DNA from: Mobula hypostoma | Taxonomy: Eukaryota | Length of the DNA: 64,000 nucleotides | Assembly: GCF_963921235.1 (NCBI RefSeq) | Contig: NC_086097.1 | Location: forward strand, 156,056,001 to 156,120,000 | Direction: 5' to 3' | Shown: positions 2,940 through 61,830 of the stretch, piece by piece | Layout: every line of letters begins with the position of its first letter | Position numbering within the stretch: the stretch's first letter is position 1 | Program-made: the position numbers and the translations under genes | The notes under the pieces: generated by a model | The model's input: the letters and a program-made list of their open reading frames with translations, nothing else | What the model was told of the DNA's origin: nothing | Database searches by the model: none

Positions 2940-3425
2940 TATATAGGTTGAGTGGTAAAGATACTGTACTTACAGTATTTTCATTAGCCGGGCCATAGAA
3001 TATATGAGGATAGAGGCTGTGGTAAAATTTTACCAAACATTGGCTAGACCACATGGGGCCTATTGTGTGTAATTTCAGTCCCCATACTGTAGAAATAATG
3101 CAGTTGCTTTTGAGAGGGTGCAGAGATTTTCTAGGATGTTGCCCTGGAGATTTCATTTCTTAGGAATGCCTGGATCGGCTCGCAAATATGAGATGAAAGG
3201 TCTTGGCCTGAAATACCGATGTTTACTGTTTTCCAAAGATGCTGCCTGGCCTGCTGAGTTCCTCTAGCATTTTGTGTGTGTTGCCCTGGATAGGCTAGGT
3301 TCATTTTCCTTGGTGCTGAGGAAGCTGAAGAGGAGGGGTTGAGGGCTGATAAAGATATGAAGGGCGTAGTTGGAACAAATAAAAGGAAACTTTTCCCAAT
3401 TACAGAGATGTCTAAAATGGTATGA
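2940..3425 (+). mobile_element. Old CR1 ORF2 C-terminal fragment interrupted by a Penelope terminus (3190-3287)
   Basis: Degenerate TLARPH, ERVQR and RMLPG-like coding sequence; insert gatgaaaggtcttggcctgaaa...gatgctgcctggcctgctgagttcc. Confidence 0.7.
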
Positions 3426-3774
3426 CATAGGATGAAGGTGAGAAGTAAATAAAGTCTAAGGAAAGTAAAATAACAAGTGGGTGTAATTTTTTGTATGATT
3501 TAAGATGGTACGGGTGAAGCAGAATGACAACTTGTGGGTGGCAAACAAAACAAACTGCATTAATCACACTTTTCTTGGATATGATCACTATAATGTATAG
3601 CATGTAACACTTTCAGAGTTGAGCCGTTGAACCAGCACGTACATTTTTAAGATGTGAACTGAAATCTCAAAGGTGCCGGACGGTTGCAGTGTGATGTGTG
3701 TGGACAGAATCAAGGCAGCTTAGTCTGAGCACGAGAGCAGGAAATAAGCTAATGTTTGGCCATTGCTGGAACGG

Positions 3775-4552
3775 ACTTCAAAGGTTCAAAGCTTCATTTA
3801 ATGTCAGAGAAATGTATACAATATACATTCTGAAATGCTTTTTCTTCGCAACCATCCATGAAAACAGAGGTGTGCCCCAAAGAATGAACGACAGTTAAAT
3901 GTTAGAACCTCAAAGTCCCCCCAGCTGCCCTCCGGTGCGTAAGCAGCAGTGAGCAACAATCCCCCCTCCCCCCACCAGCAAAAATAAAGTGCACCCGCTA
4001 CCAGCACTCAAGCGTGAGCAAAGAAATAGCAAAGACACAGACTTGCATTTACCCCAAAGACTACGTTGTTCATCCGATAATTCGACATTGCTGCAGGCTC
4101 TCTCTCTCCTAATAAGGGAGAAAGAGGTGACTCCATTCCATTTTCCAGCGAGCGGGGAGACATAACAAACAAGTCACTGGTTTACGATGTTAGAAGTCCG
4201 TTACGTCACTTTTTTCGAGCTCTGTGCCTGGAAATCGCCAGGATCCCGGGTCCCCAGGCACACAGCAGATGTTCCGACTCCCCCAATGACAGTTACTCGA
4301 GATCGTAGGCTTCTGAAACCATGCCAAAACCTTAAGCGAAGACTTTGGCATGCCGAATAGCGGCAAATTGTGGAACCCCGAGAGCGGGTCCCATTCCCAC
4401 AAAGAACAGTAGTCAGCGTGTAACTCCAGGTCAGGGTCTTCAAAAGAACCCTGAAAAGGAAGGATAGAGATATAGAAGATAGAAATAGGACTGTTTTTGA
4501 AGATGCAAGCAAAGGAATCGCCGTTGGGCGCCATAACTACTTAGTTCCGCCT
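3775..4552 (-). mobile_element. Non-autonomous LINE-derived or SINE-like element, family A
   Basis: ~770 bp colinear homology with 12001-12745; minus strand begins ...ATGGCGCCCAACGGCG and ends in a (CTTTGAA)-type tail after ATTAAA; no credible protein. Confidence 0.75.
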
Positions 4553-4564
4553 CTCAAATTCGAG

Positions 4565-5135
4565 TTGAGGTGAGCAGAGATGATGCAGAATCAAGATGGA
4601 GGGGCTCAGGTATGAGTCCAAGAGGGACGAACGACCCAAGGTGTAATCAATTTAAATGCTGGGCTAAATTGCAATGGTTGGGACCCTGAAACGAGCCAGG
4701 GTTCTGGGCCCGACAGCATATTGAAGTGGCAGAGCACAGCTCCAAGAGCGAGATATGATCTGAGGTTTGGATGATTTAAGTGCCAGGCCATATTGAAAAG
4801 GTCACAGTGTAGGGCCGGAGAGACAAGCTGGTTCAACTCACTGATCCATGGGGTTTACTCGCCTCTGTGCTGAACTGAAGCTGTCGTCTACAACTAATGG
4901 GCTGTTGAATTGGCTCATGTCTGTGGTCTTACTTTTGTGAACTTCAGTTCTGAATGTTACTTGCTTACTTTTATTCTTGAATGGTTTGTTTATTTCTGCA
5001 CATTGGGTGTTTTTGTCGGTATTTTTAATGGGTTCTATTGGTTTACTTTGTTTTGTGGCTGACTGTAAGAAGATGAATCTCAAAGTTGTATTTAGTATAT
5101 GTACTTAGATAATAAATGTACTTTGAACTTTGAAT
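4565..5135 (+). mobile_element. SINE-like or LINE 3' element with AATAAA...(CTTTGAA)n tail
   Basis: 3' part tttgtggctgactgtaagaagatgaatctcaaagttg...aataaatgtactttgaactttgaa is shared with 36430-36845 and 25480-25665. Confidence 0.65.
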
Positions 5136-5224
5136 TTTTAATCCGAAGGGGCGGACGAACCAGGGATACTTCAGGACGAACACTTGAATCACCCAAGGCA
5201 CAGAAAAAACAGGATTAGGTAACT

Positions 5225-8200
5225 GTGATTAGTATTGATGTTCAATCTGCGTCCTCTGAGAGGAGGACCCCCACAAAAGCCACAAAGAATCTAAGGAAAA
5301 GATACCCCCAGGGGTGCCCGAGAGGTGGGGAGGATGAGCACCCCAGTCAGATGGACACAACGACGTCAGACCCAGGCGATGAACAAACGACGATGAGGAA
5401 GCAGTGTGCATGTGGCAAAATCTGCAAGAACGATCGCGGCTTGAAGATCCACCAAGCGAGGATGAAGTGTTCGGCGGGAGTAGGAGCAGCACAACGCGCA
5501 GGTGTCCAACCTGGTGAGACGAAGGAGGGGCCAGGCCCAGAGTCACCCCATAGTGCCCAGAACCTCCAAGTGTTGCAAACTAATCCCTCTAACATGAAGT
5601 CTAACAGGAGGTGGATCAAATGGCCTGCAGCTAATATGACTTCACTGTGGAGGCAGTTTGATGAAGATGTTAACAGAATTCTGGAGGCAACGGCAAAGGG
5701 AGGGGTTGATAGGAAGCTGCAAACCATGACAACAATTATTGTTAGTAACACAGCGGAACGGTTTGGAGAAGAGGAGAAGGAAGGCTCCAAAACATCTTAC
5801 TCGAAGAACCAAAGAGCATTGAGGATCCATAACATCAGGCAGGAGATGAAAGCACTGAAGTCCCAATACAAGGAGGCAGGAGAAGAGGAGCGCATTGGCT
5901 TGGCCCAGCTGATGTGCATACTAAGAAAGAAGATCAGGGTCCTCCACCGGGCAGAGTGGCATCGGAGGCGGCGTCGTGAAAGGGCCCGAAAACGTGCTGC
6001 CTTTATCGCCAACCCCTTCAAGTTCACCAAGGAGTCGCTGGGGGAGAAGCGCAGTGGGAAACTGGCCTGTTCGCAGGAAGACATAGACCAACATCTGAAG
6101 AAGATATATAATGATCCTGAAAGAGAGCAGGAGTTGGGAGAGTGCGACGTCCTAATAGACCCACCTGAACCAGATGTGCAGTTTGACATGTCAGAGCTGC
6201 AACTAAAGGAAGTCAGAGAGGTCGTCCGCAAAGCAAAGGCAAGCTCGGCTCCAGGACCAAGCAAAACCTCGTACAAAGTGTACAAGAACTGCCCCAAACT
6301 CCTGCTGCGTCTGTGGAAGATCCTGAGAATCTTCTGGAGAAGGGGGAAGATCCCAGAACAGTGGAGAGTGGCTGAAGGGGTGTGGATCCCGAAGGAGGAA
6401 AATGCCACCCAGATAGATCAGTTTCGCATCATCTCCCTGCTGTGTGTCGAGGCGAAGATCTTCTTCAGTGCAGTTTCCAACCGGCTGTGCACCTACCTAG
6501 CAAAGAACACCTATATTGATACATCAGTCCAGAAGGGTGGCATTTCAGGGATGCTGGGCTGTCTGGAGCACATCGGTGTGGTGACACAGCTCATCAGGGA
6601 GGCCAGAGAGAACAAGCACAACCTGTCAGTGCTGTGGCTGGACCTGGCAAATGCATATGGCTCCATTCCGCACAAGCTGGTGCAGCTCACACTGACCAAA
6701 TATCACGTCCCCAGCAGAATCTGAGACCTTATCACTGACTATTACAGCAACTTCAGGATGATGGTCTCTTCAGGAGCAATTACATCAACCTGGCACAAGG
6801 TGGAGATCAGCATCATCACAGGGTGCACCATCTCAGTGACACTGTTCTCCCTAGCCATGAACATGCTCACTAAGTCTGCTGAACCAGAGTACAGAGGGCC
6901 CAGAATGAATTCCGCTCAACGGCAACCACCTATCAGGGCATTCATGGATGACCTCACAGTCACCACAGAATCAGTCCCAGGCTGCCGGAGGATTCTGCAA
7001 GGGCTCGAAAAGCTGGTGGAGTGGGCCCGGATGCGTTTCAAACCTGCCAAATCAAGATCGATGGTGCTGAGGAAAGGGAAGGTGGAGAACAAGTTCCGGT
7101 TCAGCATCTCAGGCACAGCCATCCCAACCATCACAGAAAAGCCAGTCAAGAGCTTAGGCAAAGTTTTTGACAGCTCTTTAAGGGACACAACATTCATTCA
7201 GGCAACCTGCACCGAGTTGGATGGCTGGCTGAAATCTGTGGACAAGTCTGGCCTACCTGGGAAGTTTAAAGCCTGGGTGTATCAGCATGGCATTCTTCCC
7301 AGAATCCTGTGGCCCCTCCTCATCTGTGCAGTTCTGATCTCGACAGTCGAAACCTTAGAGAGGAGGGTTAGCAACCACCTCAGGAGATGGCTGGGGCTGC
7401 CAAAGAGCCTAAGCAGCATCGCACTCTACGGACACCACAACAAACTGCAACTGCCTTTCAAATCCTTGGAGGAAGAATTCAAGGTAACAAGAGCCAGAGA
7501 AGTGCTACAGTATAGGGACTCAAGTGACCCAAAGGTGGCTAGAGCAGGGATTCAAGTAGGTACTGGCAGGAAGTGGAGGGCAGAGGAAGCTGTTCAGGAG
7601 GCAGAGGCGAGGCTGCGTCACAGGAGGCTGGTGGGAGTGGTCACACAAGGCCGAGCTGGGCTTGGGTCCTTTCCAACTCCCCAAATGGACACCAGAGGGA
7701 AGAAAAGGCATCGTCTAGTTCAGGAGGAGGTGAGGACAGAAGTGGAGGAGATGAGAGCCTGCAAGGTGGTGGGAATGAAGCAACAGGGAGCTTGGACAAG
7801 ATGTGAGAATGCGGTTGAGAGGAAAGTGACCTGGGCTGATCTTTGGAAAGCTGAACCACACCACATCCAATTTCTCATCCAGGCAGTGTACGATGTGCTT
7901 CCAAGCCCATCAAACCTGCACACATGGGGCAAGGCAGAGTCATGGCGTGCCCACTGTGCTCCAAGTGAGGAACCCTGGAGCACATCCTCAGCGGCTGTGC
8001 AAGGGCACTTGGTGAGGGACGGTACAGGTGGAGGCATGATCAGGTCCTGAAGACCATCGCTGAAGCTGTCAGCGCAGGAGTTGAGTGGGCGAAGCGGTCC
8101 CGACCCTCCAGGCAGACCATTGCCTTTGTCAGAGCTGGGGAGCAGCCAATACCGGTCAAAAGAACATCTACAGGCATCCTGACCTCTGCAAGGGACTGGC

Positions 8201-8601
8201 AGCTGTTGGTGGACCTCGAAGGGCAGCTGAAGTTCCCCAACCATATCGCAGCCACCACCCTGCGACCAGACGTTGTCCTAGTGTCTGAGTCTACTAAGCA
8301 AGTGGTGCTGCTGGAGCTGACAGTCCCATGGGAAGATAGCTTGGAAGAGGCCTTTGAAAGGAAGCTCTCCAAGTACGCAGGACTGGTCAGCAACTGTCAG
8401 CAGGCTGGATGGAGAGCGAGGTGTCTCCCAGTGGAGGTTGGTTGTAGGGGATTCATAGCCCGTTCTTTAGTTAGAGCCTTCAGCATTTTGGGCATCGAGG
8501 GAGAGGGGAAGAGGAGGGCCATCCGCAGTACCACCGATGCGGCAGAGAGGGCCTCAAGATGGCTGTGGCTCAAAAGAGGGGAGCCATGGAGTCATAAGTA
8601 G
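5225..8601 (+). pseudogene. HERO polyprotein ORF (ZnF-RT-CCHC-RLE), disrupted
   Basis: ORFs 5225..6724 and 6758..8050 share a frame, separated by TGA at 6722-6724; a frameshift near 7942 enters the frame of 8206..8601, with TGA at 7966-7968. True start codon uncertain (first in-frame ATG at 5351). Confidence 0.9.
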
Positions 8602-8757
8602 CTAGCCATCTGGATACAAGCTGGGGTCTGATCAGCCCCGGCTGGGTCAAATGGAGGAGGTTGTATGATGTTGAAAGACCCGAAACACCCGATGATTCCA
8701 GGAACATCACTGAAGATGTGTCCAGAAGCATCAATAGATGTATGTACACAGATGTGC
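5241..8757 (+). mobile_element. R2-group (HERO-clade) non-LTR retrotransposon, near full length
   Basis: Single-ORF architecture: N-terminal zinc finger CACGKICKNDRGLKIHQARMKC, RT (WLDLANAYGSIPH, GCTISVTLF, AFMDDL), CCHC knuckle CPLC..EHILSGC, RHD motif and PD-(D/E)XK restriction-like endonuclease (LRPDVVL..LLELTVPWE..KLSKY). Inserted in a CR1 3' tail; possible 8-bp TSD TATTGATG at 5233-5240 and 8758-8765. Confidence 0.93.
8609..8726 (+). ncRNA. Candidate non-circularly permuted (pseudoknotted) hammerhead ribozyme in the HERO 3' UTR
   Basis: CTGAAGA (8710-8716) follows stem I (8666-8672/8703-8709, 7 perfect pairs); GAAA (8682-8685) follows stem II (8644-8648/8677-8681); GTA triplet (8663-8665) ends stem III (8659-8664/8685-8690, 1 mismatch); outer 10-bp stem 8609-8618/8717-8726. 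Confidence 0.65.
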
Positions 8758-8830
8758 TATTGATGGGACGAATAGGCTATGTCAATGTATGACCCTATAA
8801 AATAAATTAAAATTAATTATATAATCAATC

Positions 8831-9027
8831 TACACTCAGTGGCCACTTTAGCAGAAACAGGAAGTGCTCACTGAGTGTATATTCGTGGTCTTCTGCTGCT
8901 GTAGTCCATCGACATCAAGTTGTTTGTTCAAAGATGTACTTCTGCATATTGTTATTGTAACATGTAGTTATTTTTGCATATAATTTGCAGGTGTACAGGT
9001 GTATTAATAATGTGGCCACTGTGTGTA
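8831..9027. mobile_element. Tc1-like MITE, internally deleted relative of 592-1121
   Basis: TA-CACTCAGTGGCCAC...GTGGCCACTGTGTG-TA termini; interior is reverse-complement similar to 592-1121. Confidence 0.75.
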
Positions 9028-9059
9028 TAATAGTATGTTATTAAAACAGTAAAATATGA

Positions 9060-10200
9060 CAGCTGATTGAAACAATAAAGATTTCAAAAGTACACAAAGC
9101 CAATGCTAGACCCCGAGATGGGCTGCTATGTGTCCCACCCAGCTTGATTTTCGAATGAAACTATTTTATCAGACAGTTCAACACAGTTTGAATTTAATCA
9201 AAATGATGAAATAGCCAAGGTAGTCTTAAATATATTAAATTGTGACCCACAATTAAAATATTTGGATGAACTTGTGGTTCGTAGTGATGCAAAGATTTGG
9301 AAGATCAGTGTAACACCTGAAGAATGGCAAAGTCCACCTATTCCAATGGCATAGACTCACAACCCACAAGTGGAAGGGAGTTTGATTAACGTTACCATGA
9401 CAAGGAATGGTTTGCATTAGATTTGATTTCATAATCGTAATAGGTGAATTAAAGAAAACAAAGCAGAAAGTCAAAAGCATTTTACAGCAATGATTATCAC
9501 CAGGACCTAATAATGATTATATTCAGCAAAATCCACTAATTCTATCCTTGCTCCTGCTGGAGACCATCTCATCAAAGAGGATCGAAATGTCATCTTCTTG
9601 GCAACACTGACTGAAAGATATGGGAGTTGGTTGATAGAGCAAAGCGGCCACAACATAGAGAAAATGGAGGAGGGATACCTATCTCATTGGATTCATAATG
9701 AACATTTAATGCAGTTGACTGATTATTAAATGCAACATAATGTGAGTTTCTAATTAAAACTCAGTAATCTATCCTATGCGAATATTCCACGAATAATATT
9801 TTTGGTCTCACTATTGTAATTTTGCCTAATTCTAAAACACTACAAACTTCCTCTGTTTAAAGTAGAAATCTTTGCACATGTATTCCAATAAATGCAAACA
9901 ATAATAGCATATTGAAAGAATTTTCCTGTGTAGCTTATAACACCTCGAAAAGTGAAGCATACAGAGAGATTTCCACAGATTTAGTGGGATATCAGAAAAT
10001 GAGAGATGTGGCAATGTATTTCTAAAGATTTTCAAGCTACATCAGCAAGGCTCAGAATTTACCAGAGGAATGGAAAATATTATCTAACTACATCTGTGTA
10101 ATTCTTTGTATTTGAAAATAACCAGAATAAACCCTTTGTAATGACCTGCTCATGTGATATTAAGGTGTAGGATCCAAAAATCTTCACATCGGGGTAACAA
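9060..10200 (+). pseudogene. Highly decayed coding remnant, probably ancient L1/Tx1 ORF2 endonuclease region
   Basis: Stop-poor plus frames (open runs 9148-9351 and 9517-9726); SNDYHQDL..CWRP resembles the L1 SDH..WRL motif; lies upstream of the decayed L1 RT block at 16.0-17.4 kb. Confidence 0.35.
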
Positions 10201-10294
10201 GAAACTCGTACTTGGGTGGTTCAACTTCTTACTTTGAATGTGACAGAATATACAGCATAAGAAAATTTGGCTGAGATATAACTATACCTGAATC

Positions 10295-11260
10295 CAAAGT
10301 ACAAGTCAAAGTTTAAAATCAGTTTATTATCATTCAACTGTATAGATGTATACCGCCAAACAAAACAACATTCCTCTGGGACAAGGTGCACAACACAGTA
10401 CATATAACTCACACACATAAAACAAAAAAGTAATATTACCACAAATAAATTAACAATAGTAAGGACCATAAATGATACAAGTTAAGAACTAAACAGTTTA
10501 ACGTGACAAACTTCTGAAATGCTCCCTTCACTGCCGCTGCTACTGTGTGGTAACTGGAATGTCCGGAGCAGAAGGCCCCGAATCCTCGGCCTTGCTTGTT
10601 TTGGTGGCCGGGGTTAGGTCGAAGGTGCTTGGCAGAGGATAGTGCTCAGGAGGCTGTATCGGAGGGGCTGGTTGGAGGCTCGAAGTTTTCGGATGGACAG
10701 ACTTGGTGTCGGCTGTGGTCGGCTGCTTCCAAGGCATCGGCAGTTGTCGGTGCCTTGGAGGTTTATGGCAGGGAATTTCTCCCTTTTGCCGCCTGCTATC
10801 GGGGACTCATGAGTTGATTGACTCGGGACTTTGAGACTTTTTTTTTTACCGTGCCCATGGTCTGTTCTTCATCAAATTATGGTATTGGTTTGCACTGCAG
10901 TAACTATATGTTATAATTATGTGGTGCTGTCAGTGTGAGTCTTTGGTTTGTCCTGTTTTCTGGAGGAACATTTTATCATTTCTTAATGCATATATGCATT
11001 TCTAAATGACAATAAAAGAGGACTGAGTGTTCTCATAATCTAATCTAATAAGTGATGAGATCTGAGTGGTGGCAGGGAGTTCAGTTGGGGGAAGAAACTG
11101 ATTCCCATCCTAACAATTCTTATCCTAATGCTACAGTGCCTTCTGCCTGATGGTAGGGGTCAAAGAGATTGTTGGAGGGAGGGAGGGATCACTAACAATG
11201 CTAAGGGCCCTGCATACACTTCTAATAAGTATAAAGTATTTAATAGGTGGAAGAGAGAAA
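10295..11260 (-). mobile_element. Rex1-like LINE 3' end, interrupted by a family B element
   Basis: 11050-11260 reads as a Rex1 C-terminus on the minus strand (ctaccatcaggcagaagg, LPSGRR-like); 3' UTR and tail at 10295-10500. Confidence 0.55.
10505..11048 (+). mobile_element. Non-autonomous element family B, 5'-truncated, (ATCTA)n tail
   Basis: Colinear with 20005-20532; ends aataaaagaggactgagtgttctcataatctaatcta. Confidence 0.8.
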
Positions 11261-11814
11261 GAAAAAGGCAAAATGGAAAGGGAAAATATAGAGAAGATAT
11301 CCGCATGATACCATAACGGTAGAAATTATGGAATTATGGGAGAACAGATGTAATACATTCTAACATAAGAATCATATTTCATGTACCTGTGTTCAAACAA
11401 TTGATCGTTTCCCTCCATAGATATTGCTGGTACTGCTAAGTCACTCCAGTATTATGTCTAAGCTAAACATGACTTACCTTGATGCCTTTAGGCAGACTGT
11501 TTTTCATTAAAAAAAATAGTCTTTAAAGTTTGTCTAGAGGTCAATCTGCAGACATTAAGTGAGTGCAACCATATCTAATCCTTATGAAATCTTTTCTCAT
11601 TAGTTTTATTAAGTTTATCTTACAAGTTCAGGGATAAGGTTTACTTACATTTGCAAAATATGGCATTGTGAAAGTCAGCACGGGTTTATGCAGGGTAGAT
11701 TTACTCTCATCAATTAGATTGAATTTTATCAGGAAGTGCACATGAATGTCAACATGGACATTAGTAAAATACAAGCCAAGGTCTCTCTTAGTACTTTAGT
11801 GCAGAAGATTAATT

Positions 11815-11995
11815 TTAAATTTAAATTAGAGAGACAGCATGAGGACAGGAACTTCTGGCCAAAAGAGCAAGTACTGCCCAATAACACTCAGGTGACCAAT
11901 TAACCTATTAACCTATATGTTCCTGGAATGTGGAAGGAAATTGGAGCATACAAAGGAAACCCACATGGTCATGGAGAGAACATACCAACAGAGAA
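11815..11995 (-). mobile_element. V-domain SINE (HE1-like) fragment
   Basis: Reverse complement reads gttctctccatgaccatgtgggtttcc...ctccaatttccttccacattcc (V-domain); positional homolog at 46220-46460. Confidence 0.7.
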
Positions 11996-12000
11996 ATAAA

Positions 12001-20532: not shown

Positions 20533-21847
20533 AAGAACGTGGTAACCCACCTCAATGACTATCATCAGGAGCACTTACATCCACACTGATGAAGAGTTTT
20601 GAGAGAATGGTGATGAAATATATCAACTAAGAAGTGACATAGATCTGCTTCAATATCCCCAGAGCAATAGGTCCACTGCAGATGCCATCTCTTTGGGTCT
20701 TCACTCAACCCTGGAACATCTGGACAGTAAAGATGCATACATCAGAATGTTCTTTATTGACTACAGCTCAGCATTCAATACCATCATCATGTCAAAGCTA
20801 ACCAAGAAGCTTCAGCAATTTGGCCTCAATACCTCCTTGTGCAATTGGATCCTCAATTTCATCACTTGCAGACCCTAGTCAATCGGATTGGCAATAACAA
20901 CTCCTCCACAATCTCCATCTGCACAGGTTCACTACAGGCTTAATACCCTGCTCTACTTGTTATGATTGTGCAGCTAAACACAGTTCCAATGCATTTTCAA
21001 GTTTGCTGTTGTCATTACTGTTGTTGGCCAAATTAAAGTAGTGACAAATCAGCAGATAGGAGGAAGACTAAACATCTGGCAGAGTGCTGTTGCAAGAATA
21101 ACCTCTTACTTAAAGTTAGCAAACCCAGGAACTGTTTGTTGACCTTAGGAGGAGGAAACCCAAGGTCCATGAACCAGTCCTCATGGGGGGCTCAGAGAGG
21201 GAGAGTGTCAGCAACTTTAAATTCCTCAGTGTTATCACTGTCATGGGGGGGGGGGCATTGATGGCGGACCCAAATGCAAGACACAGGCACACAGGCACTG
21301 AAGTACTAAGAACAGGACAGGACTAGAGACTAGAGTTAGGGACGTGACTGGATGCAGACTGGGAGCTGGGGCAAGAAAACCAACCTGGGCTAGGACTTGA
21401 CTAGGAAAGTGGGAAAAGGATGAGGAACAAAGAACTAGGAGCCTGGACAAGGACTCCGAGCCAGAGACTGGACAAGGACCCGAAACCTGGGTCTTGATTC
21501 GGGCTTAGAGCCCGGATCTAGGCGAAGATATGATAAGGCTTGGGTTCCTTGAGGCGTGAGGGTACTTCGAGGCTTGGGTTCGGGCTCTGAGCCAGAGACT
21601 GGGCAGGGTCCCAGAACCTGGGACTTGACTCGGGCTCGGACTCCAGAACTGGGCGAGGACAAGACGTGGCTACAGGACTGGACGTGAGACTCCTGGACAG
21701 GACAAGGGAACCCCAGCACCGGGCTGGTAAGGTACTCCAGGGTTGGGCGAGATACATGGACAAGACGAGAACACAAATCCACGGCTTGGACAGGACAAGG
21801 TTCTTGGATTGTGGCTAGGACTGGACAAGACCCTGAAGCCTTGACTT

Positions 21848-22020
21848 GGTCGAGGGAGAGACGGGAATCCAGAGCTTTGGTCGAGGGAGAGACGGGAACG
21901 CAGAGCCTCGGTCGAGGGAGAGATGGGAGTGCAGAGCCTCGGTCGAGGAAGAGATGGGAGCGCAGTGCCTTGGTCGAGGGAGAGACGGGAGCGCAGAGCC
22001 TCGGTCGAGGGAGAGACAGG
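21848..22020. repeat. 31-bp minisatellite, ~5.6 copies, inside the LTR
   Basis: Unit GGTCGAGGGAGAGACGGGAGCGCAGAGCCTC starts at 21848, 21879, 21910, 21941, 21972 and 22003. Confidence 0.95.
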
Positions 22021-23150
22021 AACATGGAACACAGAGCCAGGAACCCTCTTTGGAAACAGGATGTAGGGCCAGGACTCATACACAGAACACAGAGCTGGGA
22101 CTCCTCCTTGGGTACAGGACATAGAGCCAGGACTCATTACACAGAATGCAAAATACAACAAGACAGTTCCTAATACAAGGCAGCAGCAGACAGCTGGACC
22201 TACCTAGCAAAGACATGGACACAGACAATTCTCAACACTAGGTAGCGGCAAACGGCCAGACCTACCTAGCAAAGGCAAGGACACAAAGACAAATCGCAAC
22301 ACTAGGTAGCAGCAAACAGCCAGACCTACCTAGTGAAGGTGTGGACACAGAGACAGTTGAAAACAATGATAGACAGTTCCTTATCTTGCTCCAGCAATTG
22401 AACCAGACAGCGGGTGCAGACAAGGCTTCAGGCGAGGCGAGGCAAGACAAGGCAAGGCTTCAGGTGAGGCGAGGCTTCAGACACTGGTTGCAGGTCAAGG
22501 CTTCAGGAGGTAGGAGCAGAGAAGGGATACAAACAGGGAGTTTGGATAGGAACAATCCAGCAACCAGAGGCATCTTCTTCTTCTTCTTCTTCTTTTTTGT
22601 TTAATGGCGGTTGGCAACTAGTTTTCAGTGCATTACTGCCACCTGCTAGACTTGTGGTGTTTCAACCAACTATGTCCTGGAGTTCTCTACTTTAGACAAT
22701 CTAGTTCAGCCTGCAGTTCTCTATTAGCATCACTCTGTAGTTGCAATTCCTCGTGAATGCTTAATGCGCTCATTAGATAATGCCACAAACTGCTATTCTT
22801 CCCTAATTATGTCACATGTTTTCGCATTACCTCAATTACACTGATTTCATCTACATCACTTGTAAGACTAAAATCATCTTGTTAAAGAATAGTAATTATC
22901 ACACGCTATACTTTTAAACTTGTTTTTCCAAGTCTATCTGCTTTTTCAGGTTTTCCTTTTCTTGGATCGTAGCCTGCAGTTGTTTACTGAGACCTCGGAA
23001 TTCTTCTTCATTCGCTTCTATGTTTTCATTTTATAATATGAATGTAGATAATTCACTTTGCAACAAATTCTTTTTCCTTTTGTATCCTTGTAATAATTTC
23101 CTCCATTTTCCAATCTCTTTCCAACTCACTGTTGTTCTTGTCGGGTACTT

Positions 23151-24104
23151 CTATTTGTTGTTGGAGTTCTGCACATTTACCCTGGGCTTCAACCATAAAA
23201 TCTGAGGATTTTCCTTAAGTTCTGAAACATTTCTTAAATTCTTGACCATTTGCGATAAATATACTGCCATTAAGATTCCATCTCCCCTGCCCTGTGAACT
23301 GTTGGATCCTCCATTCAGCATTTCTTTGACTTCTTCCCACCTAATTCCTTTAATACCAAGATACTTTTCTGCAGGCTTGATGATAATTTTAATTTTCTCA
23401 GTTCTTTTGTTTGTTTGCGCTGAACAATTAATTGCATCCACCATAAAAAGCATGAACTCCTTTCTACTCATTAATAGTGTATCCTTATTTTTCATACTAC
23501 AGCTCTTACAATTCACCAGTTTATTATTCCCTGTATTTGTTTGCTTGACAGCCTTTTTTTCATCAACTTCTTTCACTGCCTCTGCATAACTGATTCCTTG
23601 AGTTACTTTTACATATTGTATCTCAGCCGCCTTCTTACTATAAATGCACCCTTGATAAGCTGCGCTGTGCTCCTCGCCACAATTGCAGGATTTCAGCCTA
23701 GCGCCTGCCTCACAGTTCCCATATTCAGGTTCTCTAGTGCATCTTCCACATCTTTGTTTCCCTCTGCAGACTGCCGCAATGTGCCCGAATTTCTGACATT
23801 TATAGCATCTTAAAGGAGGTGGTATATATATTCTAAGCGCACAACACATATACCTTAAGTAAATGTTAGTCGGCAATCTCTCTTCATCAAAGTTAATCAT
23901 TACCGATAAACTATCACACTTTTTCCCGTTTCTTGTAACTTTCAAACGTTTGGCCTCAATAATTTTTGCTCCTTTTATGTTCTGTTTAATCTCATCCATA
24001 GCAACTTTTGTTGATATCCCCAAAATAACTCCTCTAGTCCACTTTCTATTTTTGGGTATTGAGCATTGTTCTTCTTTGCCGTCTATTTTACATAATCTGA
24101 TCAC
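23151..24104 (-). pseudogene. Nimb/I ORF1 (gag-like, three zinc knuckles) fused to the ORF2 start
   Basis: RGVILGI..AKRL..PPPLRCYKCQKFGHIAAVC..CGRC..CNCGEEHSAAYQGC; the N-terminal part (ATG near 24743) is cut off by the Penelope insert. Confidence 0.85.
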
Positions 24105-24107
24105 TTT

Positions 24108-41062: not shown

Positions 41063-43900
41063 AGAATCATAGAGAAATGTAGCACAGAAACAGGCCCTTT
41101 GGCTCAACTAGTCCACGCCAAAAACATTTAAACTGCCTACTCCCATCGACCTGCACTGGGATCATAACCCTCCATACCTCCGCTATCCATGTACCTATCC
41201 AAACTTCTCCTAAACGTTGAAATTGAGCTCACATGCACCACTTGTGCTGGAAGCTCATTCCACACTCTCATGTCTTTTTGAGTGTAGTAGTTTCCCTGCA
41301 AGTTCTTCTTAAATGTCTCACCTTTCATAACATTTGGTTGTAGACCCACCCAACCTCAATGGAAAAAGCCTGCTTGTATTTACCTTATATATACCCCTCA
41401 TAATTTTGTATATCTCTCTCAAATCTCCTCTCAGTCTTCTACGTTCTAAAGAATACAGCCCTAGCCTATTCAATATTTCTTTATAAGTCAGGTCCTCCAG
41501 ACCCAGCAACATGTTTGTAAATTTTCTCCATACGCTTTCAACCTTGCTTGCATCGTTCCTGTAGGTAGATGACCAAAACTACACATAATACTTCGGATTA
41601 CGCTTCACCTGTGTCTTATACAATTTCACCATAACATCCCATCTCCTGTACTCAATACATTGATTTATGAAGGCCAAAAGCTTTCTTTATGACCCTACCT
41701 ACCTGTGATGCCACTTTTAACAAATTATGAGCCTGTATTCCCAGATCCCTTTGTTCTACCACACCCCTCTGTGCCCTACTGTTCACTGCGAAAGACCTAC
41801 CCTGGTTGGTCTTACCAAAGTGCAACCTCTCACACTTGTCGGCATTAAATTCCATCTGCCTTTTTCTGCCCATTTTCATAGTCATAGTCATACTTTATTG
41901 ATCCCGGGGGAAATTGGTTTTCATTACAGTTGCACCATAAATAATTAAATAGTAATAATAAAACCATAAACAGTTAAATAGTAATATGTAGATTATGCCA
42001 GGAAGTAAGTCCAGGACCAGCCTATTGGCTCAGGGTGTCTGACCCTCCAAGGGAGGAGTTGTAAAGTTTGATGGCCACAGGCAGGAATAACTTCCTATGA
42101 CGCTCTGTGTTGCATCTCAGTGGAATGATTCTCTGGCTGAATGTACTCCTGTGCCCAACCAGTACATTATGTAGTGGATGGGAGACATTGTCCAAGATGG
42201 CATGCAACTTGGACAGCATCCTCTTTTCAGATACCACCGTCAGAGAGTCCAGTTCCATCCCCACAACATCACTGGCCTTAGGAATGAGTTTGTTGATTCT
42301 GTTGGTGTCTGCTACCCTCAGCCTGCTGCCCCAGCACACAACAGCAAACATGATAGCACTGGCCACCACAGACTCGTAGAATATCCTCAGCATCGTCCGG
42401 CAGATGTTAAAAGACCTCAGTCTCCTCAGGAAATAGAGACGGCTCTGTCTCTTCTTGTAGACAGCCTCAGTGTTCTTTGACCAGTCCAGTTTATTGTCAA
42501 TTCGTATCCCAAGGTATTTGTAATCCTCCACCATGTCCACACTGACCCCCTGGATGGAAACAGGGGTCACTGGTACCTTAGCTCTCCTCAAGTCTACCAC
42601 CAGACCCTTAGTCTTTTTCACATTAAGCTGCAGATAATTCTGCTCACGCCATGTGACAAAGTTTCCTACCGTAGCCCTGTACTCAGCCTCCTCTCCCTTG
42701 CTGATGCATCCAACTGTGGCAGAGTCATCAGAAAACTTCTGAAAATGACAAGACTCTGTGCAGTAGTTGAAGTCCAAGGTGTAAATGGTGAAGAGAAAGG
42801 GAGATTCAGACCCCTCTGCAAGACATGATAGTCTTTCTCACTGTCCACTACATCCCTAATCCTGGTGTCATCCAAAACTTTGCTGATCCCGTTAACCACA
42901 TTATCATCCAGGTCATTGAAATAGGTGACAAACAACGAAGTACACAGCACCAATCTCTGCGGCACACCACTAGTCAGAGGCCTTCAGTCAGAGAGGCAAC
43001 CCTCTTCTACCACTCTCTAGTTTCTCCCACAAAGCCAATGTCTAATCCAATTTACTCCCTCATCCTGAAATCTGAGTGACTGAACCTTCTTGACCAACCT
43101 CCCATGTGGGACCTTGTCAAACACCTTACTAAAGTCCATATCGACAACATCCACTGCCTTGCCTTCATCCACGTTCCAGGTAATTTCCTCGAAAAACTCT
43201 GTAACATTGGTTTAACATGACTTACCATGCCCAAAGCCTTGCTGACTATCCTTAATCAGTCCATGTCTATCCAAATACTTATAATACTTTCCAATAAGTT
43301 TCCCACAACTGATGTCAGACTCACTGGCCTATAATTTCCTGGTTTATGTTTAGAGCTTTTTTTAAACAGCAGAATAACATTAGCTATCCTCCAGTTTTCT
43401 GGTACTCTCCTGTTGCTAAGGATGTTTTAAATATCTCTGCTAGGGCCCCATAAATTTCTGCACTTCCCTACTGTAGGGTCTGAGGGAACACCTGGTCAGG
43501 GCCTGGAGATTTATGCACCCTGATTCGCCTCTGGGTAGCGAACACTTCCTCCTCTGTAATCTGTGCGGGGTCCATGAAATTGATGCCATTTTGCCTTACT
43601 TCTTTAGACTCTGTTTCCATCTCCTGACTAAGTAAAGATGCAAAGAATTAATTTAAAGTCTCCCCCTCTATTTTGGCTCCACACATGGATTACCATTCTG
43701 GTCTTCCAGAGGACCAATTTTGTCCCTTGCAATCCTTTTTCCCTTAGCATATCTGTAGAGTCTCTTGGGATTCTCCTTCACCTTGTCTGATAGAGCAACT
43801 CCCTGCCTTCTTTTAGCTTTCCTGATTTCCTTCTTGTGTTCTCCTGCATTTCTTGTACTCCATAAGCATCTCATTTGATCCTACTTGCTTATACCTAACC
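41063..43900 (-). mobile_element. CR1 LINE ORF2, 5'-truncated, interrupted by Rex1
   Basis: ORFs 43668 (KVKENPKRLYRY..DKIGPL), 42666, 41652 (QMEFNADKCE), 41318 and 41137; tail at 41063. Confidence 0.88.
41877..42803 (-). mobile_element. Rex1/Babar LINE, young, 5'-truncated
   Basis: Uninterrupted 251-aa ORF 42022..42777 (QKFSDDS, YKYLG, RLYFLRRLRSF); (TATGAC)n tail. Confidence 0.95.
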
Positions 43901-58900: not shown

Positions 58901-61830
58901 AATCATTAGAAAGAGGTGACATAGGGTTGGAAGGTGTTTAATTGTAGTGGATAGAGCTAAGGAACAGCAAGTGTAAAAATACCCTGATGGGAGTTGTATA
59001 CAGACCCTCAAACAGTAGTAAGGATGTGGTCTACATGTTAGAATGGGAGACAGAAAACACATACCAAAAAGGCAATGTTAAAATAGTCATGGGAGACTTC
59101 AATATGCAGGTAGATTGGGAAAATCAGTTTGGTACTGGATTCCAGGAGGCAGAATTTCCAGAATGCCAACAAGGTGACCTTTCAGAGGAACTCGTGGTTG
59201 AGCCCACTAGGGGATCAGCTATTCTAGTTTAGATGTTGTGCTATGAACTGGAATTGATTAAAAAGAGCTTAATATAAAAGAACTCTTAGGGACAAGTGAC
59301 CATAATATGATCGAATTCACCCTGAAATTTGAGAAGGAGAAGCTAGAGTCAGATGTATCAATATTACAGTAGAGTACAGGGAATTACAGAGGCATGAGAG
59401 AGGAGTTGTCCAGAATTGATTGGAAAAAAAAACACTGGCAGAGGTGATGGCAGAGCAGCAATGATTGGAATTTCTGGAAGCAATTTGGAAGGCACAGGAT
59501 ATATACATTCCGAAGAGAAAAATGTATTCTAAAGGTAAGATTTCACAATCGTGGCTAACAACAGAAGTCAAAGCCAACATAAAAGCCAAATAGAGGGCAT
59601 AAAATAGAGCAAAAACTAGTGGAAGTTAGAGGATTGGGAATCTTTTCAATACCAACCAGGCAACTAAATAAAGTCATTAAGAAGGTAAAAGTGGAATATG
59701 AAAGTAAGTTAGCCAAGAATATTGAAGAGGATACCAAAAGTTTCTTCAGATACACCAAGTGTAAAAGAGAGGCTAAAGTAGATATTGGACCATTGGAAAA
59801 TGATGCTGGAGAGGTAGTAATGGTGGACAAGTGGTGTTATGATGGACAAACTGAATAAATATCTTGCATCAGTCTTCATTGTGGAAGACACCAGCAGTAT
59901 GGTGGAAGTTCCAGGTGTCAGGGGTCATGAAGTGTCTGAAATTACCTTTACTAGGGAGAAGGTTTCTTGGGAAACTAAAAGGTCTGAAGGTACCTGAGGC
60001 ACCTGGAGCAGTTGGTGTACACTCCAGGCTTCTGAAAGAGATGGCTAAAGAGATTGTGCAGTCATCAGTAACGATGTTTCAAGAACAACTAGATTCTGGA
60101 ATCATTCCAGAAGACAGGAAAATTGTAAATTCACTCAACTCCTCAAGAAGGGAAAGAGGAGGAAGAAAACAAATTATAGGCATATTATAGACCACAGTGG
60201 CTGGGAAGATGTTGTAGTCAATTGCTAAGGATGTGGTTTTGGGATACTTTGAGGCACATGTTAAAATAGGCCATACTCAGCATGGTTTTCTCAAGGGAAA
60301 ATCTTGCCTGACTAACGTGTAAGAATTCTTTAAAAGAGATAACAAGCAGGAGAGACAAAGGTGCTCGGAAGCTGAAAAGTCTGTGTGTAGATAAGTCACC
60401 TTGACCAGGTGAACTACATCTCAGGGTTCTGAAAGAGATAGCTGAAGGGATTGTGGAAGCATCAATAATGATCTTTCATGAATTACTTAATTCTGGAATG
60501 GTTTTGGAGGACTGGAAAAATTAAAAATGTCTCTCCATTGTCCACGATGGGAGGAAGGAGGAAGAAAGAAAATTATAGGCCAGTTAGACTGACCTTAGTG
60601 GTTGGGAAGATGTTGAAGTCGATTGTTAATGATGTGGTTTCAAGGTACTTGGAGGCACATGGTAAATAATCAAAGTCAGCTTGGTTTCCTGAAGGGAAAA
60701 TCTTGCTTAATAAATTTGTGAGAAATCTTTGAGGGAAAAACAAGCAGGATTGACAAAGGGGAATTGGTTGATGTGTCCTTGGATTTTCATGAACCTTTAA
60801 TAAGGTGCCACACATGAGGCTGCTTAACAAACTACGAGCCCATGGTATTATATGGAAGATTCTAGCATGGATAAAGCAGTGGTTCATTGGCAGGATGCAA
60901 AGAGTGGGAACAAAGGGAGCCCTTTCTGGTTGGGTGCCGGGGATTAGTGGTATTCCACTGGGTTCAGTATTGGGACCAATTCTTTTTACATTGTATGTCA
61001 ATAATTTGGATGATGGAATTGCTGGCTTTGTGGCCATGTTTGTGGGCAATATGAATATAGGTGGAGGTGCAGGTAGTATTGAGGAAGTAGGGAGGCTACA
61101 AAAGGACTTGGACAGATTCGGAGAATGGGCAAAGAAGTGGAAGATGGAATACACTGTTAGGAAGCGTACGGTAATGCACTTTGGTGGAAGGAATAAAAGC
61201 ATAGACTATTTTCTAAACAGGGAAAAAATTCAAAAATCTGATGTACAAGGGGACTTGGGAGTCCTCATGTACGCTTCCCTAAAGGTTAACTTTCAGGTTG
61301 AGTCAGTGGTGAGGAAGGCAAAGGCAATATTAGCATTCATTTAGAGAAGACTAGAATATAAAAGCAAGAATGTAATTCTAGACTTTATAAGGCACTGGTT
61401 AGGCCTCACTTGAAGTATTGAGAGCAGTTTTGTGCCTCCCATTTAAGGAAGCTGATATGGGAGAGGGTTCAGAGCATGTTCACAAGAACAATTCTGGGAA
61501 TGAAAGTCTTATCATATGAGGAGTGATTGATGGGTCTGGGTCTTTACTTGCTGGAATTTAGAAGAATGAATGAGGATCTCATTGTAACCTATCCAAAGAC
61601 CTAGAGAGAGTGGAAGCGGAGAGGATGTTTCCTATGGTGAATGAGCCTAGGACCAGGGAGCAAAGACTTAAAATAGAGGGAATTTGCTTTGGAATGGAGA
61701 TGAGGAGGAAGTTCTTTAGCCAGAGGGTAGTCAACCTGGGGAACTCATTGCCACAGTGGCTGTGGAGGCCAAGTCATTGAGTATATTTAAAGAGGGTGTT
61801 GATAAGTTCTTGATTAATTAGGGTGTCAAA
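55995..61830 (+). mobile_element. CR1 LINE spanning 5' UTR, ORF1 and ORF2, decayed and mosaic, with nested inserts
   Basis: ORF1 remnants near 56480-56830, esterase at 57610-57870, endonuclease (GVVYRPSNS..MGDFN, 58987), RT (GIPLGSVLGP, 60805); nested Rex1 piece ~56840-57490, Penelope terminus 57495-57607, CR1 3' end 58030-58680. Confidence 0.85.
56006..56290 (+). repeat. Three ~107-bp monomers with CCAAT box at the CR1 5' end
   Basis: tttgaattgyrgccwatcag at 56006, 56112 and 56220; gattaaaaaagcagc repeated. Confidence 0.75.

Follow-up and report, generated by a model that had tools for sequence, protein, structure and literature searches.

A self-cleaving hammerhead ribozyme is predicted in the 3' untranslated region (UTR) of Hero/Zebulon-like LINEs, whose RNA appears to serve as a template for more than one round of copying, probably in circular form, and we consider this combined reading reasonably probable. 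Activity of the ribozyme is judged very likely from comparative evidence, and a covalent circle as the template would be an even call. The partial tandems formed by full-length insertions, the variants shared between their ends and the scarless crossings of the predicted cut point to copying more than once around, which suggests a circular-RNA route. In its broadest form the reading would give a whole clade of R2-group LINEs (i) a protein-coding circular RNA of ~3.6 kb, (ii) a seventh hammerhead architecture, of the SGC class with a four-way junction at A9/G10.1 and a k-turn, possibly switched by protein, that cuts and closes this circle, and (iii) rolling-circle target-primed reverse transcription beginning at an internal site; this form is put forward tentatively, as falling slightly short of an even chance. 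If true, the rolling-circle reading would mean that non-LTR retrotransposons can replicate in a novel way, and would connect them with the SGC ribozymes found in viroid-like RNAs.

The element and its predicted ribozyme in the window

The window, that is the whole 64-kb stretch of Mobula hypostoma DNA that was analysed, contains a copy of such an element with the following features:

5243..8751, + strand: R2-group (Hero/Zebulon-like) non-LTR retrotransposon, decayed and 5'-truncated, of a young high-copy family
5243..8601, + strand: single ORF with N-terminal zinc finger, reverse transcriptase (RT), CCHC knuckle and restriction-like endonuclease
8609..8618, + strand: 5' strand of the closing helix P0 (partner 8717-8726), 10 of 10 pairs changing on both sides
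8619..8643, + strand: hairpin between P0 and G10.1, part of a predicted gap-free four-way junction at A9/G10.1
8644..8648, + strand: stem II strand 10.1-10.5, located 5' of the cleavage strand (partner 8677-8681), 96.3% paired
8650..8656, + strand: 5' strand of the pseudoknot, the putative stem I-II interaction helix (partner 8696-8702)
8657..8658, + strand: GA of a k-turn-like motif (opposite a 3-nt bulge plus GA, 8691-8695), 39 of 60 loci
8659..8665, + strand: 5' strand of stem III, with U16.1 (8664) and the predicted cleavage nucleotide H17 (A8665)
8666..8676, + strand: 5' strand of stem I (8666-8672) and short linker to stem II, 94.3% paired
8677..8690, + strand: block G, with the stem II 3' strand, G12-A13-A14-A15.1 and the stem III 3' strand
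8691..8702, + strand: k-turn-like bulge plus GA (8691-8695) and 3' strand of the pseudoknot (8696-8702)
8703..8716, + strand: 3' strand of stem I and CUGANGA (C3-A9)
8717..8726, + strand: 3' strand of P0, immediately after A9
8728..8751, + strand: terminal hairpin (8728-8741) with an AUG at 8738-8740, and element 3' end

The window copy itself is decayed: it is 5'-truncated at 5243, and its ORF is broken by a stop codon (6722-6724) and a frameshift near 7969-8050. The repeat family is young (40 scored matches, identity 96-100%), and intact siblings extend 128 nt further at the 5' end, upstream of which part of the 3' end is present a second time; in one sibling (L294) the ORF is intact at 1166 aa. 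The window copy differs from its siblings by T at 8615 (C in 24/24) and by A at 8650 and 8651 (C in 24/24 and 22/24, respectively), the latter two changes removing two conserved C-G pairs from the pseudoknot.

The element protein matched the Pfam model RVT_1, and the endonuclease domain, which gave no Pfam match, was read from its motif. With the exception of the RT, the domain labels (zinc finger, CCHC knuckle, restriction-like endonuclease) are presumed from sequence motifs. The best PDB matches were R2 proteins (E 6e-24), with L1 proteins also among the matches, and the single ORF with the RT followed by a restriction-like endonuclease has the layout of the Hero clade. Neither a GIY-YIG endonuclease nor a telomerase-like RT was matched by Pfam in the element protein, so the element is not placed among Penelope-like elements, and as an autonomous coding LINE it is not a retrozyme (non-coding, non-autonomous, LTR-derived). 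Sequence identity was 63% over 1088 aa to AAN12398 from Tetraodon, which clusters with BAC82599 at 90%, and 64% over the RT region to BAC82598 from Takifugu. We take AAN12398 and BAC82599 to be Zebulon and HEROTn. The name HERO is used provisionally because of the similarity to two pufferfish proteins presumed to come from named Hero elements, the identity to AAN12398 and BAC82598 being 63-67%.

A reading of the window made from the sequence only had proposed a hammerhead starting 8 nt past the ORF stop, and the stop codon at 8599-8601 places it there. All six helices that it listed pair where it put them, including its G-U pair and single U.C mismatch, and the core words are in place (CTGAAGA 8710-8716, GAAA 8682-8685, GUA triplet 8663-8665, with the predicted cut between 8665 and 8666). 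Its TGGA/TCCA helix is real but too short, as the family has 7 bp at 8650-8656/8696-8702; T8661, which it regarded as a lesion in need of repair, is the family majority (20/24 siblings). The terminal hairpin and the k-turn-like motif are additions to that reading. Folding of 8600-8760 gave a z-score of -3.15 (1 of 200 shuffles as good) and a minimum-energy structure in which stems I-III do not occur together, pseudoknots being beyond what such folds can represent.

Several further observations were made. The loop of the hairpin (8627-8635 in the window) and its homologues are often either palindromic over a short stretch (UGAUCA or UGGCCA) or tetraloops of the GACG type, and could mediate RNA dimerisation or protein binding. 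Just 3' of the element lies an inverted repeat (8828-8882), probably a small inverted-repeat element; its resemblance to mir-9256 in Rfam was weak, at 31.5 bits where the gathering score is 80. Elsewhere the window contains decayed RT fragments (1213-2399, 42022-42837, 60793-61344) and an ORF with a gag-like zinc knuckle (23151-24107), all labelled from their translations, and tandem repeats at 21435-22480. The same genome has a second Hero-like family of ~55% protein identity (L111, L114, L115, L136) with the same motif containing CUGAUGA.

Tandem insertions and the route of copying

Full-length insertions are partial head-to-tail tandems. Of the 30 copies found by their 5' region, half (15) extend to the 5' start, and every one of these runs on through one exact junction into the element's own 3' end. 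The 21-base junction motif had 100 exact matches in the genome, and 40 insertions showed the layout truncated 3' part, 128 nt, unit. In the metagenome the motif was followed by the N-terminal ORF region in 10 of 55 loci, in one of them weakly. The tandem layout is probably already known for Zebulon; the title of a 2003 paper by Bouneau et al. states a tandem structure.

The two repeats of an insertion are related to each other more closely than to those of other insertions. In a shared-variant test, from which 5 of the 40 insertions were excluded because they had no usable 3' end, the two ends of one insertion shared 32 of 154 variants (21%), compared with 4.1 +/- 1.9% for cross-pairs (maximum 10.4% in 1000 permutations), a figure to which gene conversion could add. 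One copy (L265) has the same deletion, 5763 to 8426, in both rounds. The shared variants and the repeated deletion argue for one template copied more than once, and that both repeats derive from a single template is rated as highly probable.

The predicted cut was crossed by 61 of 100 upstream parts, and none of the 60 readable crossings carried an indel. The rate of second-round truncation, at first 0.59% per nt, drops to 0.23% at a best change point of 8664 (support 8655-8680; 11 of 2000 null scans as good; L143 and L279 treated as censored), the idea of this test having come from loci overlapping 37 of the 100, and the 63 new loci alone giving no significant change (p 0.07-0.13). Copies starting at 8666-8743 are in surplus. 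There was no pile-up at 8666, where 1 of 100 copies starts, with 1 more at 8664 and 0 of 58 first-round copies. End-to-end template jumping, which predicts 86-nt insertions or scars at 8666, was rejected, since none of the 58 first-round copies showed the former and none of the 60 crossings the latter.

At the other end of the insertions, 9 of 22 and 6 of 25 copies have a 3' flank that extends the junction sequence for 2 nt or more, which is commoner than expected by chance, and reverse transcription would start internally at the element 3' end (~8751). No consistent target-site duplications were found in 32 insertions, and the flanks were unrelated to each other; HERO is described as having no specific target site in the accessible part of PMC3636483. 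The 1166-aa ORF of L294 opens at the AUG in the terminal hairpin, upstream of the tandem junction. For distant families, it was not confirmed that such an AUG is kept in frame through the junction, the single copies there having stops. Contigs of three runs from the same species, guessed to be RNA, cover the element, data of a kind that cannot show ends, strand or circles.

The proposed cycle would start from an active locus of the tandem layout found in the DNA, the transcript of which would contain two ribozymes. With both of them cleaving after H17, an RNA one unit long (~3.6 kb) would be set free that begins with a 5'-OH at 8666 and ends in a cyclic phosphate at 8665. Four helices would hold its ends together, and the joining would be the work of the ribozyme or of an RtcB-type ligase. 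The protein would then nick non-specific DNA and begin reverse transcription internally at ~8751, a step partly visible in the insertions, and proceed once around and into a second round until it stops, whereby the partial tandem that forms the observed footprint would be rebuilt. Some templates were probably cut only at the upstream ribozyme, which would account for the surplus of starts at 8666-8743. The sequence-only reading had spoken of a 3' self-cleaving module that would sever the last ~90 nt of its own RNA. The motif does lie at the 3' end, and with the element ending at 8751 the cut is followed by 86 nt, but it would act in forming the 5' end and the circle rather than purely at the 3' end. 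Since full-length copies carry a second, upstream 3' end, the puzzle of the severed end likely has its answer there.

The main rival, which we regard as unlikely, is a linear template. Here only the upstream hammerhead would cut, setting a 5' end at 8666 in the way that the HDV-like ribozyme does in R2, with no covalent circle formed, and the cDNA would switch by homology from the 86-nt terminal repeat to its downstream counterpart, much as retroviruses do in strand transfer. Such a template would account just as well for the scarless crossings, the variants shared between ends and the deletion present in both rounds, and the surplus of starts at 8666-8743 fits it. In addition, 14 of the 58 copies have internal deletions whose ends are scattered, which suggests that the RT jumps readily. 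The R2 RT is capable of template jumping. However, one of two identical ribozymes would have to stay uncut, the strand transfer would have to take place without RNase H, which the R2 group is not known to have, and only 1-2 of 100 copies begin at the supposed 5' end.

The internal deletions join ~5670-5860 to ~8310-8530, with ends that are clustered but non-identical (L201-L258, L259-L298), and many other copies are 5'-truncated near 8410-8470. Introns and microhomology events were considered as their origin, and neither pattern was seen, nor any special long-range duplex. The clusters suggest a hotspot at which the RT stalls and jumps, giving rise to mini-elements ~1 kb long; the deletion 5763 to 8426, present in L265 and L281, is an example of those that seem to replicate. 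A short ACA/ACAG stutter resembling priming slippage was observed where the 3' end meets the flank in L261, L262, L273, L275, and L283. On one metagenome contig, two different Hero-like families lie head-to-tail ~3.7 kb apart (L055, 1291-4905; L061, 5021-8635), an arrangement that may have arisen when the RT switched from one family's template to the other's, or through insertion beside a related element.

Conservation and strand order of the predicted ribozyme

An alignment of 57 endonuclease domains was used to fetch 80 metagenome loci (protein identity 39-85%). A descriptor applied to 85 loci gave 63 calls and left 22 loci without one; 60 calls were kept, 3 with scores of 10 or lower were dropped, and for L044 the call was adjusted manually. 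Since the descriptor itself contained the core words and the 16.1-15.1 pair, with H17 and N7 left free, the invariance of these words and of this pair is partly circular. Forty-four copies were aligned in an unguided manner by MAFFT, 16 near-duplicate or weaker loci being omitted. A covariance model from 44 copies matched 68 of the 80 metagenome loci, in each case on the sense strand, and the 64-kb window once only. Of these 68 loci, 26 had not been used for training, some near-duplicates among them. The 12 loci that it missed comprised 6 with no more than ~200 nt of downstream sequence, 2 without a protein end and 4 truly without the motif (L088, L091, L095, and L106, with 334-501 nt downstream). 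In one locus (L107:1-87) the motif occurs ~1.4 kb 5' of the endonuclease match and may represent the upstream repeat of a deleted element.

The motif is a clade-wide, strongly covarying predicted hammerhead. In the 44-copy alignment all six helices proposed by the sequence-only reading covary, with paired cells at 86.0% compared with 60.5% after shuffling, covariation at 0.62 compared with 0.20 after shuffling and 0.09-0.14 with slid partners, and changes on both sides in 38 of 41 base pairs. Relatedness can beat shuffles, and the weight thus rests on the slid control and on the many pair types per column. Stems I, II (rewired) and III were paired in 94.3, 96.3, and 94.0% of the cells, the 10.1-11.1 pair was G-C in 36 and G-U in 4 of the 44 copies, and 6 of the 7 pseudoknot pairs change on both sides.

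The full hammerhead core (C3 U4 G5 A6 N7 G8 A9 and G12 A13 A14 A15.1) is present, with CUGANGA in 58 and GAAA in 57 of the 60 loci, figures partly selected by the descriptor; the core words were seen also in the matches made by the model only, with some decay. The cleavage triplet follows the NUH rule of hammerheads (H not G), since H17 is U in 23, C in 19, A in 18 and G in none of the 60 loci. On the protein tree H17 changes at least 20 times among A, C and U and never to G, N7 changes 19 times, G8 once and G5 never.

Because of this H17 pattern, a non-catalytic fold derived from a hammerhead and kept as a platform for the element protein, in the manner of the R2 3' UTR pseudoknot, appears quite improbable. 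Near-fixation of G5 and G8, the shift of the truncation rate at the predicted cut and the fully paired junction of 42 of 60 loci, which preserved core stacking would predict, likewise argue against such a scaffold. Its tandems would have to come from uncut read-through transcripts together with template switching or gene conversion. It gains from the uncoupling of A9 from G10.1, which could disable the core, from the finding of neither a scar nor a sharp pile-up at the cut, and from Penelope hammerhead mutants that still insert in vitro according to the accessible text of PMC11167929.

Rfam searches found no ribozyme family in window positions 3000-12000 at E up to 10, in 18 loci at E up to 1 or in the motif-negative loci, and no relatives were found among viral contigs. 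That short hammerhead words occur by chance in an ordinary structured 3' UTR, as this Rfam result and the lack of joint stems I-III in the minimum-energy fold might suggest, is refuted by the presence of the motif in 68 of 80 related loci with a single match in the window and by covariation far above the shuffled and slid controls.

For the predicted active hammerhead, the strand order was then compared with the published types. The blocks are ordered S-G-C, as in type SGC, which agrees with the earlier description of a scrambled, pseudoknotted order outside types I-III. That CUGANGA is uncoupled from stem II, as also proposed earlier, is borne out by the partner strand upstream, which lies 19-25 nt 5' of H17. 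A canonical SGC stem II located 3' of CUGANGA, with a bulged U, was plausible in the window copy and rejected across families, where its partner pairs in 53.6% of the cells, the level of the slid control. From A9 the chain enters P0, and from the P0 partner it passes through the hairpin to G10.1 with zero unpaired bases in 42 of 60 loci (7-17 for offset controls). We infer a four-way junction at A9/G10.1, in which stem II presumably keeps its stacking on the A9.G12 pair, with P0 stacked on the hairpin. The pseudoknot sits after the 10.x strand and before the 3' strand of stem I, the position of the SGC I-II interaction helix, and by analogy with SGC would act as a tertiary contact of stems I and II. 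Together the stem II strand and the placement of the pseudoknot indicate a circularly permuted SGC ribozyme opened inside block C, so that the predicted ribozyme would be a type-SGC permutation opened at A9/G10.1, with two added helices completing the four-way junction.

The pseudoknot is joined to stem III by GA opposite a 3-nt bulge plus GA in 39 of 60 loci. Bulges of 1, 2, and 4 nt occurred in 1, 2, and 0 loci, and those of 0 and 5 nt in 16 and 9 loci, the latter two counts probably reflecting register shifts. Within the 39 loci L1 and L2 are purines in 32 and 33, and L3 is U in 29. The kink-turn consensus consists of a 3-nt bulge followed by tandem G.A/A.G pairs between two helices. The predicted motif fits this consensus and may bend stem III towards the I-II pseudoknot.

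Comparison with known systems

In type SGC (Eckert et al., 2023; PMC10085705) CUGANGA leads into the stem II strand, and the search patterns given in the accessible part of that study require CUGAUGA(U)G and then stem II, so that a split form would be missed. The same source reports no SGC in genomes of known organisms, a single GCS candidate being the only exception overall. The Hero motif resembles type SGC in the S-G-C order, the short linker between stems I and II, the full core and a helix linking the distal ends of these stems. It differs in that the 10.x and interaction strands precede block S, where type SGC has them behind CUGANGA, that two helices at A9/G10.1 and a k-turn-like motif are added, and that it is located in a chromosomal LINE. 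As far as the permutations are set out in the accessible text of PMC10085705, the split of block C fits none of the six and breaks with the assumption of an indivisible CUGANGA block. Since block C is not intact, the motif, judged by its predicted strand order, is strictly not a type SGC member. No tested precedent for a split block C was found in the searched literature, and the predicted activity is therefore an extrapolation. In the searched literature we could not find a description of this hammerhead architecture, no ribozyme or circular intermediate was described for Zebulon, HEROTn or HEROFr, no paper combined Hero, retrotransposon and hammerhead, and no description of the motif in Hero elements was found.

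For ribozyme structure, the motif would be a natural hammerhead in which a supposedly indivisible block is split with rich covariation, and it would place an SGC-class motif in animal chromosomes. It also provides an account, open to testing, of how Zebulon/Hero elements come to be partial tandems. R2-group proteins are under development for gene insertion, and a protein of this group that primed internally on a stable circle, with products longer than one unit, would provide a different kind of tool.

R2 retrotransposons belong to the same protein group, R2 proteins being the best PDB matches of the element protein. R2 is site-specific and primes at the 3' end of its own RNA, in which it differs from the Hero elements with their unspecific targets and presumed internal start. 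As far as described in the accessible part of PMC6765202, R2 likewise uses a ribozyme that frees the element RNA from a co-transcript and has short, internally deleted derivatives, but its ribozyme is 5' and HDV-like, of another class and in another position. Penelope-like elements with pLTR hammerheads share with Hero, as it is read here, the partial tandem, a hammerhead in the terminal repeat, internal initiation of reverse transcription and an ORF start near the ribozyme (accessible parts of PMC11167929 and of Weinberg et al., 2019; PMC6765202). In contrast, they have a GIY-YIG endonuclease and a telomerase-like RT instead of an R2-group RT and a restriction-like endonuclease, and their hammerheads are ordinary small ones with no circle shown in these parts. 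For a Penelope-like element the hammerhead was dispensable for insertion in vitro (Frangieh et al., 2024; PMC11167929, as far as accessible). In retrozymes, two terminal-repeat hammerheads give rise to unit-length linear and circular RNAs, and the elements are non-coding, non-autonomous and LTR/gypsy-dependent with target-site duplications, as summarised from the accessible text of Cervera et al. (2016; PMC4918200), whereas Hero is an autonomous coding LINE with no consistent duplication. The likenesses suggest convergence of Hero, Penelope elements and retrozymes on a cycle of hammerhead plus terminal repeat, in which the Hero motif, by analogy, would work like the terminal-repeat hammerheads of the other two while being a member of neither family.
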